The notes under the pieces are model-generated. The model ran no database searches, was not told where the DNA came from, and was given only the letters and a program-made list of their open reading frames with translations. Source: Candidatus Saccharimonadales bacterium (GTDB lineage: Bacteria > Patescibacteriota > Saccharimonadia > Saccharimonadales > OMJO01). From it: 64,000 nt of DNA. Within the stretch, counting starts at the first letter, position 1. Each line of letters starts with the position of its first letter. The stretch lies in assembly GCA_035480035.1 (NCBI GenBank), contig DATIID010000001.1, forward strand, positions 137,323 to 201,322. Direction: 5' to 3'. A program made the translations under genes and the position numbers. Shown in pieces: positions 29,624 through 63,830 of the stretch.

Positions 29624-29662
29624 AATTGACAATTATATTTGTGATAGCGCAAAAAAGTATTA

Positions 29663-62016: not shown

Positions 62017-62037
62017 CTTTTATCGACCTTTATCGAC
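62017..62037 (-). repeat. tandem direct repeat GTCGATAAAG / GTCGATAAAAG between the leader terminator and the rplJ RBS
   Basis: Read directly. On the plus strand it is CTTTTATCGAC-CTTTATCGAC. Confidence 0.6.
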
Positions 62038-62038
62038 T

Positions 62039-62064
62039 AAAAAAGTCCTTGGTAAACCAAAGAC
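62039..62064 (-). terminator. intrinsic terminator-like hairpin inside the rplJ leader
   Basis: Minus strand: GTCTTTGG-TTTA-CCAAGGAC followed by TTTTTT. The single non-Watson-Crick pair is G.U on the minus strand and C.A on the plus strand. Confidence 0.5.
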
Positions 62065-62144
62065 TTAAACATCATCAATAAATTTATGATTGCCTAGGCG
62101 ACATTATCAAGCTTTTGGCCGTCGCTGTCTTTGGTAACTGGTGA

Positions 62145-62173
62145 ATTATAGGTTATTTTAAGTTATTATTCAA
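62145..62173 (-). promoter_or_regulatory. sigma70-like promoter for rplJL
   Basis: TTGAAT (62173-62168), N17, TATAAT (62150-62145). Confidence 0.5.
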
Positions 62174-62708: not shown

Positions 62709-62726
62709 ACGTGCACTCCTTTCAAT

Positions 62727-62753
62727 AAAAAGCGGCCCTGGCGGGCCGTTTTT
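62727..62753 (-). terminator. GC-rich intrinsic terminator (symmetric, bidirectional-looking)
   Basis: AAAAAG-CGGCCC-TGGC-GGGCCG-TTTTT. It sits 19 nt upstream of the 62708 start codon. Confidence 0.55.
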
Positions 62754-62861
62754 AGTTTGTTGACAATATTCTCTAGGCCCGCAGCTTAGTGCTGGTAATA
62801 ATCGAGTTAATAATGATTATTTGAGCCACGAAAACTATATTGCTCTTTAAAGCTTGGGATG

Positions 62862-63137
62862 TCAACCTGCCGACTCTTCAACAGGTATGACTCTGATTTC
62901 TGATTGGCCGACTACACTACCAACTTGCCATGCCTGATGTGGTACATCCCACCGACTTCTTATTGTTTCTTGATGACTTCCGGTTCTAGTTACACCTGTA
63001 ATCGGATCGTAATCCAAAACCATAGTGTCAGGATCCACATCCATTTCTTCACTGGGCACAACCACTGGCTGTGCTTCTATTTTTTGATTATTTACAAACG
63101 GATCACCACTCCATTCGCCTCTTGCCCATATACTCAT
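62862..63137 (-). CDS. hypothetical protein (91 aa)
   Basis: AAGGAG SD 6 nt upstream. No family recognised. Confidence 0.45.
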   Translation of the reverse strand: MSIWARGEWSGDPFVNNQKIEAQPVVVPSEEMDVDPDTMVLDYDPITGVTRTGSHQETIRSRWDVPHQAWQVGSVVGQSEIRVIPVEESAG

Positions 63138-63154
63138 ATTTTTCTCCTTAAATT

Positions 63155-63180
63155 AAAAACAAGCTTCGTTGAAGCCTGTT
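63155..63180 (-). terminator. intrinsic terminator / attenuator hairpin abutting the RBS of 62862..63137
   Basis: Minus strand: AACAGGCTTC-AAC-GAAGCTTGTT followed by TTT (63157-63155), giving the run TTTTT with the stem's last two T, then AATTTAAGGAG. The one non-canonical pair is G.U on the minus strand and A.C on the plus strand. Confidence 0.5.
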
Positions 63181-63287
63181 ATTTTGGACTGTACTAGCGA
63201 GCTTTAGATGCTCGAGGCTTCAACCATACTGAAGCACAGCCCTTGAAGGCTGAGTAGGAGCTGACTTAACAGGTTGAAAACTTTCAC
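63181..63287 (-). promoter_or_regulatory. leader with alternative hairpins and a 27-codon GTG mini-ORF
   Basis: Segments 63235-63230, 63224-63216 and 63180-63168 can pair 1:2 or 2:3. Mini-ORF GTG 63287 to TAA 63204 (VKVFNLLSQLLLSLQGLCFSMVEASSI). Confidence 0.4.
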
Positions 63288-63294
63288 AAATTGA

Positions 63295-63345
63295 ATCGTA
63301 CCACCAAATTAAGCTATTGACAATAGCTAAGTTTGAGCGTACATT
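63295..63345. promoter_or_regulatory. divergent overlapping promoters sharing a palindromic -35
   Basis: Plus strand: TTGACA (63317-63322), N17, TACATT (63340-63345). Minus strand: TTGTCA (63323-63318), N17, TACGAT (63300-63295). 17-bp perfect palindrome AGCTATTG-A-CAATAGCT at 63312-63328. Confidence 0.5.
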
Positions 63346-63466
63346 CTATGCTCGTGAGTAATTTCAATCATCTTGCCAAGACTACAAGTAACCGTATGTA
63401 CGGTTTCATTGTAATTGGCTAATGATTGGAGTTCCGCGAGACTAAAAAAATAAGCAAATCAAATCA
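63346..63466 (+). promoter_or_regulatory. structured leader (long irregular hairpin 63361-63432) with a GTG mini-ORF
   Basis: Helices are 63361-71/63422-32, 63375-79/63415-19, 63383-87/63409-13 and 63390-95/63400-05. GGAGTTCCG (63428-36) can alternatively pair with the terminator 5' arm. Mini-ORF GTG 63354 to TAA 63422. Confidence 0.4.
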
Positions 63467-63499
63467 CCGGACTCCAAACCAAAGGAGTCCGGTTTTTTT
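63467..63499 (+). terminator. strong intrinsic terminator immediately upstream of an RBS
   Basis: CCGGACTCC-AAACCAAA-GGAGTCCGG followed by TTTTTTT, then AAGGAG and ATG 63514. Confidence 0.75.
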
Positions 63500-63513
63500 A
63501 AGGAGAAGCAAAA

Positions 63514-63830
63514 TGGCTAAAGTGAGACGACAAAGATTTGACAATTTTGAACATTCTGCCAAAGATTTGGCAAGGGTCAGACTTGATTATAGTCGCGACG
63601 GAACATTCGACCTGGATTTAATGGAGGGTGTGTCCCAGTTTGCCCACGCTTTAGGCGTCTGTGCTATGTCAAAAGGACAGGGTTCCAGTCGTGCTCGACT
63701 AGAAGCCTTATCAATGAGAGCTATGCAAAACGCCGACAATGATTGGTCTACTTTGGCGGACCAATCTCAACAAATTGTAGTTGACGAATCTCCAACTGAG
63801 AGTATATTAGGGAATCGAGAACAGCAATGA
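63514..63830 (+). CDS. hypothetical protein (105 aa)
   Basis: AAGGAG SD 7 nt before ATG 63514. The track's 63426 start would read through the terminator and is rejected. Confidence 0.5.

Follow-up and report, generated by a model that had tools for sequence, protein, structure and literature searches.

The attenuator of the Corynebacterium glutamicum ilvBNC operon has a three-hairpin leader, and the start codon of its leader peptide, IlvL, lies 1 nucleotide (nt) from the transcription start site (PMC11857589). Like the actinobacterial ilvB and leuA attenuators (PMC1262725), it combines a short peptide rich in Ile, Val or Leu with anti-antiterminator, antiterminator and terminator hairpins, and these elements precede acetolactate synthase genes. 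The subject of this paper is a site near the end of a 64,000-nt stretch of DNA from a Candidatus Saccharimonadales bacterium (metagenome-assembled genome, contig DATIID010000001.1; this whole stretch is called the window), where two predicted divergent promoters share one palindromic -35 element. On the basis of sequence comparison, we consider it likely that the site consists of two ribosome-mediated (leader-peptide) attenuators, A on the minus strand and B on the plus strand, which stand back to back with their -35 hexamers fused into one.

The likeness to the corynebacterial and other actinobacterial attenuators includes the transcription start, which is predicted here too at or 1 nt before the leader start codon, the composition of the peptide, the set of hairpins and, in 24 contexts of family A, the acetolactate synthase genes downstream. 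However, neither sequence nor covariance-model similarity to them was found. Family A has a three-way junction, its peptide of 23-33 codons carries a run of Leu or Ile, only small open reading frames (ORFs) come after about half of its copies, its hosts are Patescibacteria and not Actinobacteria, and in nine sequences it is fused back to back with a second attenuator. A and B would thus be classical attenuators in kind and new families in sequence and structure, with the ilvBNC attenuator as the closest known case.

The logic proposed for A and B is that of the enterobacterial trp, leu, ilvGMEDA, ilvBN and his leaders: 1:2, 2:3 and 3:4 pairings, regulatory codons within a leader ORF, and a stop codon at which the terminating ribosome would mask segment 2. 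The enterobacterial leaders possess a 5' untranslated region of their own with a Shine-Dalgarno sequence, whereas the A and B mRNAs appear to be leaderless. The Rfam Leu, Thr and His leader models gave no match at the attenuators, and Thr_leader matched only at chance level elsewhere in the window. Mycobacterial leaderless mRNAs begin with AUG or GUG, and the leaderless polycysteine upstream ORFs of mycobacteria also place a short AUG or GUG ORF first, the codon content of which sets downstream expression (bioRxiv 10.1101/834739). Cys is sensed there, while here Leu, Ile and Val codons are combined with an intrinsic terminator/antiterminator pair. Full-text searches of PubMed Central open-access papers and bioRxiv preprints yielded no description of the present elements, nor of attenuators, leader peptides or leaderless mRNA regulation in Saccharibacteria.

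The shared -35 element and its palindrome

The original prediction had placed a perfect palindrome, with two outward promoters on its centre, between the two units. Its position and symmetry were verified by direct reading, and so were the hexamers: TTGACA (63317-63322) and TACATT are 17 nt apart on the plus strand, and TTGTCA (63323-63318) and TACGAT have the same spacing on the minus strand (Table 1). In a consensus scan the plus promoter matched 10 of 12 positions and was the better of the two, with 9 of 12 for the minus promoter. Taken as bare patterns, the palindrome, the hexamer pairs and the ATTGACAAT strings are not above chance. The window contains 6 perfect palindromes whose arms measure 8 bp or more, with a spacer of 0-3 (5.2 ± 2.7 in Markov simulations), the 2-kb region contains 7 promoter-like sites (4.7 ± 2.3 expected), and ATTGACAAT occurs 35 times with at most one mismatch (25.8 ± 5.5 expected). 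At the ATTGACAAT copy at 29625 no -10 was found at a spacing of 16-18 nt.

Both promoters are very probably real, because the arrangement is conserved in relatives. A shared -35, outward -10 hexamers at 17-18 nt and a start codon 7-9 nt beyond each were also found in 8 other distinct Saccharimonadia sequences (L014, L017, L028, L032, L070, L077, L120 and L146, making nine with the window). Every family-A copy that has TTGTCA as its -35 carries TTGACA-17/18-TA(C/A)A(T/G)T on the opposite strand of the same base pairs. Each pair has the -35 and -10 hexamers, the 16-18 bp spacing and the conserved position of a sigma-70-type promoter, and both predicted transcripts belong to conserved RNA families, in agreement with the divergent promoters first proposed. 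The family-B leader is present in 8 of the 9 fused sequences, the exception being L017, where it has decayed. In L022 and L026 an A/B pair occurs with the -35 hexamers 10 and 4 bp apart, respectively, and the fusion therefore looks like a derived compaction.

Since both -35 readings occupy 63317-63323, two holoenzymes would be unable to bind at once, and one orientation of the polymerase is expected to exclude the other. In Escherichia coli promoters with a shared -10, competition counts only at high promoter activity (PMC12825309). The bidirectional promoters of Warman, Grainger and co-workers likewise have a pseudo-symmetric element that is read on both strands with exclusive binding (bioRxiv 10.1101/2020.01.31.928960; PMC12825309), but it is the -10 which is shared, 18 bp is the typical distance between the starts (10 and 23 bp also occur), and the two directions use separate -35 elements (PMC12825309). 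In the window the -35 is shared, the -10 hexamers lie outside it and 39 bp apart, and the predicted starts are about 67 bp apart; the site does not belong to the shared -10 class as defined there (PMC12825309). As a further observation, GCG or CG stands directly 5' of the -10 in many family-A and family-B promoters (GCGTACATT, GCGTATAAC, GCGTAAAGT; 63337-63339 in the window), which may be an extended -10-like feature of these organisms.

In tetA/tetR and lambda PR/PRM, divergent promoters have a common palindromic operator for a known dimeric repressor that is encoded alongside. A dimeric regulator which binds the palindrome and blocks both promoters had also been proposed for the present site, and the two cases do resemble each other in having back-to-back promoters with dyad symmetry between them. 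The 8+1+8 symmetry is centred exactly on the shared -35, and in the window symmetry extends to all five positions outside the core, compared to 8 of 40 such positions in the relatives; extension by chance was estimated at about 1e-3 per lineage (range about 3e-4 to 2e-3), and it is unlikely that drift alone produced the five pairs. The proposal is nevertheless not supported. In all 8 relatives with the same fused promoters the extension is absent (perfect arms of 3-4 compared to 8 in the window) although the flanking elements are conserved, an outcome of the kind that had been named beforehand as a refutation. The conserved element is just the naturally palindromic TTGACAA, and the five further symmetric pairs are lineage-specific. 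No second copy of the palindrome (up to 3 mismatches) and no half-site cluster was found in the 64-kb window, nor was a DNA-binding protein evident among the flanking ORFs, which had no Pfam or PHROG match. Palindromes of this size occur in the window at the chance rate, and both units already own a regulatory device. A perfect palindrome can also be reached by a neutral route, the template-switch correction of a quasi-palindrome. It is possible that the five extra pairs arose in this way, or as a newly acquired binding site; for the attenuation mechanism proposed below, the palindrome beyond the -35 core is dispensable. An operator, which could act on top of attenuation, is in our opinion unlikely. 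The functional reading of the site accordingly moves from a repressor-controlled switch to two putative branched-chain amino acid attenuators on one -35.

Two other candidates were rejected. A regulon of the palindrome or of TTGACAAT was not found within the 64-kb window. Origin of the palindrome by inverted duplication seemed to be indicated by a gapped alignment of the arms (z of 5-6), but the ungapped symmetry at 9-45 positions from the centre, 15/37, was inside the range of the relatives (9-17/37), so that the similarity of the arms reflects the common layout of promoter and leader.

Probable attenuator families A and B

Both downstream units had been described as orphan genes with long structured leaders. 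This holds for the ORFs, which have no or only faint homologues, but the leaders are not orphan, each being a member of a conserved RNA family. The whole minus leader spans 63148-63287, and its 27-codon ORF with a Leu/Ile run begins about 7 nt past the -10. In blastn, 63131-63263 (minus strand) showed 74-78 % nucleotide identity at 17 or more places in related genomes, where ORFs A-D are absent. A genome scan with L10 provided 40 loci, nearly all from metagenome-assembled genomes of Saccharimonadia, and metagenome copies were found by a pattern scan (58-109 bits when scored with the covariance model). With the covariance model R1, 18 copies were recovered from genome loci and about 50 from metagenome loci, at scores of 58-112 bits (110 bits for the window copy). 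Family A numbers 86 distinct copies, from Saccharimonadia genomes and from metagenomes.

The family-A copies share the order promoter, start codon (6-10 nt after the -10), mini-ORF, invariant GGGCUGUGCUUCA...GGUUGAAGCC, variable hairpin, GCACAGCCC and terminator, with complementarity between GGUUGAAGCC and the terminator's 5' arm (GGCUUCAACC). Two mutually exclusive folds are each supported by covariation. In the terminated fold (P1, P2 and terminator) pairing reached 96.9 %, and 7 pairs had changed on both sides; for the antiterminator, in which segment 2 pairs with segment 3, the values were 94.9 % and 5 pairs. In neither case did any of 500 shuffles score as high. Compensatory changes were present at 4 pairs of the terminator helix. 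In constraint folding the antiterminator was the minimum-energy fold only when the ribosome footprint reached P1.

An in-frame ORF of 23-33 codons, located 6-10 nt past a -10, is kept in all 86 distinct copies, and its stop codon lies in or beside P3, just past segment 2. At positions -7 to -5 before the invariant CTG, i.e. preceding (S/G)-L-x-G-L-C-F, Ile, Leu or Val is encoded in 85-93 % of the copies, as CTC or ATT. The interchange of ATT and CTC points to selection at the codon rather than the RNA level.

Attenuator contexts could be classified in 62 cases. Genes for IlvB, IlvN, RidA or IlvA follow in 24 of them and HMGL-type LeuA/CimA genes in 7, so that cognate biosynthesis genes are linked to family A in 31 of the 62 contexts; in 28, including the window, there are only small ORFs followed by the L10 gene rplJ. 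The ilv products were identified by Pfam as the thiamine pyrophosphate (TPP) enzyme IlvB, the ACT protein IlvN, RidA and IlvA (PALP/Thr_dehydrat_C). No ilv or leuA gene was found in the 64-kb window.

These data also bear on whether A and B might be metabolite- or protein-binding, riboswitch-like elements, with incidental mini-ORFs and no ribosome involved in sensing. The conserved three-way junction of family A and its invariant 13-nt GGGCUGUGCUUCA, in which third codon positions never vary, indicate constraint at the RNA level. Several features speak against such elements, however: the frame, the start codon at the predicted +1 and the stop in or beside P3 are kept in 86/86 copies despite insertions and deletions, and the run keeps Ile, Leu or Val across unrelated codons, which is not expected of an RNA motif. 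The linkage to ilv and leu genes fits sensing of tRNA charging, and no Rfam riboswitch family matches. Riboswitch-like elements are the least probable of the explanations considered here.

When the window and 7 relatives were scanned with Rfam 15 at gathering thresholds, only tRNAs and the L10 leader were obtained, and attenuators A and B matched no family. The best sub-threshold matches in the window were Lig_thermometer (22 bits) and freshwater-2 (18 bits, E = 4.3), the latter over the 3' part of attenuator A (63135-63214, minus strand). The freshwater-2 match is probably due to chance, though the motif likewise comes from environmental metagenomes. Two loci were observed to have attenuator A in tandem. 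In L010 (2022-2137 and 2463-2573) both copies come with a promoter, a leader peptide and a small ORF of their own, and ilvB lies downstream, while in L071 (10033-10146 and 10454-10566) only small ORFs and L10 were detected downstream. In addition, Logan contigs from 3 of 4 samples (L002-L004, L006-L008) break at 63213-63242 with k-1 overlaps, on the invariant core of attenuator A, all bases being identical to the window. The breaks are likely to result from k-mers common to co-occurring Saccharimonadia, which would branch the assembly graph. An invertible segment was rejected as their cause, as no inverted copy of the 30-mer exists.

Family B was gathered from the opposite strand upstream of family A in relatives, and then by a profile search, and has 16 copies. 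TTGACA, 16-18 nt, TA(C/A/G/T)A(T/G/A)T, 7-9 nt and GTG are present in all of them; the -10 has the forms (GCG)TACATT, TACAGT or TAAAGT, and in the window the GTG is 8 nt past it. The mini-ORF has 22-34 codons, a GTG start (16/16) and the C-terminal motif ...YG(F/I)V(L/I)(I/M)... A GGUUGGAR-type strand directly adjoins the stop codon of this mini-ORF and pairs with the terminator's 5' arm. Such antiterminator duplexes, of -9 to -21 kcal/mol and z of -2 to -5.6, were found in 13 of the 16 copies and terminators in all 16, and the antiterminator strand changes in step with the terminator sequence, i.e. the two covary. In the window the plus leader spans 63354-63500, and 63352-63515 folds far better than shuffled sequences (z = -7.3). 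Only small variable ORFs lie downstream of family B. The plus leader was also considered as a paralogue of family A; this was rejected, since the family-A covariance model gave only 22.9 bits there, and B is a separate family.

These results make it improbable that only the minus promoter with attenuator A is functional. In that case the plus hexamers would be a by-product of the symmetry inherent in TTGTCAA, and the plus leader would be either a decaying relic or a separate small RNA with another start. Such an explanation would suit L017, whose B side has neither GTG nor a family-B match and yet retains TTGACA-17-TACATT, and the plus-side genes, which have almost no detectable homologues. 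It does not fit the invariant promoter, spacing and GTG in the 16 copies, nor the covariation of antiterminator and terminator. The window copy of B is itself strong (E = 5.5e-24, fold z of -7.3), and the plus promoter is the one nearer to consensus (10/12).

The preferred reading, two leader-peptide attenuators, would operate as follows. Holoenzyme would bind TTGACAA/TTGTCAA in either orientation and produce a leaderless mRNA that begins at about 63287 for A (minus strand) or at about 63354 for B (plus strand); we infer these starts, 67 bp apart, from how far the conserved start codon lies from the -10. Each mRNA would open with a GTG mini-ORF rich in branched-chain codons, a Leu run in A and Phe-Ile-Val-Ile in B. 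With plentiful charged tRNA, a ribosome at the stop codon would cover segment 2, the terminator, which lies just ahead of the next gene's Shine-Dalgarno sequence, would form, and transcription would end. When Leu, Ile or Val is scarce, a ribosome stalled upstream would open the anti-antiterminator, which in A is the P1/P2/P3 junction and in B the long hairpin, and the freed segment 2 could capture the 5' arm of the terminator, allowing read-through into ORF A and ORF C or into ORF B and ORF D. The elements of a classical attenuator were found on both sides, namely a 5' in-frame ORF with clustered regulatory codons (more weakly in some B copies), an intrinsic terminator and a covarying, mutually exclusive antiterminator.

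Several points weigh against this reading, in addition to the extra symmetry of the palindrome described above. With the A site on the second or third Leu codon, the stall in attenuator A falls slightly short, the footprint needing 1-2 codons more in constraint folding. Equilibrium folding of B with a stalled footprint still gave the terminator, as the 5' arm pairs around the footprint in silico, and some B peptides have just two branched-chain codons (e.g. GFVRM, GIVCM). Finally, there are 28 contexts, that of the window among them, in which attenuator A is not followed by a biosynthetic gene.

Flanking genes and a third attenuator-like unit

The features of the site are collected in Table 1.

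Table 1 Positions in the window of the promoters, the two predicted attenuators and the adjacent ORFs
Feature	Position	Strand	Basis
Palindrome AGCTATTGACAATAGCT, perfect 17 bp (8+1+8)	63312-63328		Direct reading; central 7 bp alone conserved in relatives
-35 core common to both promoters, TTGACAA (plus)/TTGTCAA (minus)	63317-63323		Direct reading and consensus scan; fused core in 9 distinct sequences
-10 of attenuator-A promoter, TACGAT, with TG at 63303-63302	63295-63300	-	Consensus scan; -10 likewise placed in relatives
-10 of attenuator-B promoter, TACATT, GCG directly before	63340-63345	+	Consensus scan; layout kept in 16/16 family-B copies
Leader peptide A, GTG start, predicted leaderless, MKVFNLLSQLLLSLQGLCFSMVEASSI, stop TAA	63204-63287	-	ORF intact in 86/86 distinct members
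Leu run CTC CTA CTC of leader peptide A	63260-63252	-	Three run positions Ile/Leu/Val in 85-93 % of copies
Attenuator A core	63148-63260	-	Covariance-model match, 110 bits; covariation for both folds
P1 of attenuator A	63242-63236 pairing with 63192-63186	-	As for attenuator A core
Segment 1 of attenuator A	63235-63230	-	As for attenuator A core
Segment 2 of attenuator A	63225-63216	-	As for attenuator A core
P3, variable hairpin of attenuator A	63214-63198	-	As for attenuator A core
Segment 3 of attenuator A	63176-63168	-	As for attenuator A core
Terminator of attenuator A	63180-63158, U-run 63157-63148	-	Terminator listing and covariation
Leader peptide B, GTG start, predicted leaderless, MSNFNHLAKTTSNRMYGFIVIG, stop TAA	63354-63422	+	ORF with GTG start in 16/16 family-B copies
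Phe-Ile-Val-Ile codons of leader peptide B	63405-63416	+	(F/I)V(L/I)(I/M) block of family B
Attenuator B	63352-63500	+	Fold z = -7.3; nhmmer family match, E = 5.5e-24
Long hairpin of attenuator B, 88 nt	63352-63439	+	Folding
Antiterminator strand of attenuator B, TTGGAGTTCCG	63426-63436	+	Duplex with terminator 5' arm, -14.9 kcal/mol, p = 0.01
Terminator of attenuator B	63466-63493, T-run 63494-63500	+	Terminator listing
ORF A, 91 amino acids (aa), first gene after attenuator A; Shine-Dalgarno AAGGAG 63149-63144	62862-63137	-	Self match only among 5.8 billion proteins
ORF B, 105 aa; Shine-Dalgarno AAGGAG 63500-63505	63513-63830	+	Self match only among 5.8 billion proteins
ORF D, 147 aa, after ORF B, running off the window	start 63827	+	Self match only among 5.8 billion proteins

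The gene order at the locus is rplA (-), tmk (-), dcd (-), tmk-thyX fusion (-), 147-aa ORF (+), 105-aa ORF (+), palindrome, 91-aa ORF (-), 180-aa ORF (-), L10 leader (-), rplJ (-) and rplL (-). ORF B weakly matches the ORF in the same relative position of L120 (E = 2.6e-4). For the 180-aa ORF (ORF C) 7 distant relatives were found; one of them, a protein of 1589 aa, matches it in 17 stretches. Pfam and PHROGs gave no assignment for ORFs A-D, the sole sub-threshold match being DUF7380.

The order rplA, dcd, tmk-thyX, gap, rplJ is conserved in those Saccharimonadia loci which reach far enough upstream. The gap between tmk-thyX and rplJ is hypervariable, 0.9-3.6 kb in length, and does not contain ORFs A-D in relatives (loci L010-L045). 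Its contents were observed to be small, acidic, fast-evolving ORFs that differ from genome to genome. Just past the end of the window (L005, 3001-6767), three genes for nucleotide metabolism interrupt the stretch from rplA to rplJ, namely tmk for a thymidylate kinase, dcd for a dCTP deaminase and tmk-thyX for a fusion of thymidylate kinase with ThyX (783 aa); dcd and tmk-thyX are so placed in most of the loci reaching far enough upstream, and the separate thymidylate kinase was detected in few. The ribosomal protein L10 leader (RF00557, 50.3 bits) is located at 62030-62152 on the minus strand, upstream of rplJ, and a promoter-like TTGAAT-17-TATAAT lies near it at 62173-62145.

Between the 91-aa and 180-aa ORFs there is a third attenuator-like unit (62709-62865, minus strand). 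The TTGACA of its promoter (62865-62860) overlaps ORF A at the stop codon; CAATAT comes 17 nt later, and after a further 7 nt there is the GTG (62829) of a mini-ORF for MAQIIIINSIITSTKLRA. The final GCGGGCC of this mini-ORF pairs with the 5' arm of the terminator (-17.2 kcal/mol), and the terminator itself (62748-62733, minus strand) lies directly ahead of the Shine-Dalgarno sequence of ORF C. An identical layout was recognised by eye in L014 (MTHNAIIKVIVCSLSARL), L032 (MTKSKLVIEVVILPD) and L120 (MTRSIIIAIIAHPADARR). It is probable that this unit represents a third RNA family.

Probable attenuators in host-dependent bacteria

To our knowledge, regulation in Patescibacteria (the candidate phyla radiation) is almost unknown. 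The present paper describes two RNA families new to Rfam, A with 86 distinct copies and B with 16, and a probable third, all of which offer testable mechanisms. The leaders also provide evidence, from start codon placement, that AUG/GUG mRNAs may be leaderless in these organisms. The fused -35 with outward -10 hexamers mirrors the bidirectional promoters so far described, in which the -10 is the shared element.

Many Saccharimonadia, including the organism of the window, have no ilv or leu genes at the locus and yet up to three intact attenuators (A, B and the Ile-rich unit at 62773-62865), each of which precedes a small, acidic and very fast-evolving ORF. The retention of attenuators in the absence of biosynthetic genes at the locus suggests that bacteria which depend on a host may express small proteins in response to amino acid starvation. 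As a tentative idea, which we would not call probable, these episymbionts may have rewired a sensor of tRNA charging from biosynthesis to starvation-induced proteins, possibly directed at the host. The fused -35 would then act as a toggle between A and B at each initiation event, and an acquired operator could add a further layer.

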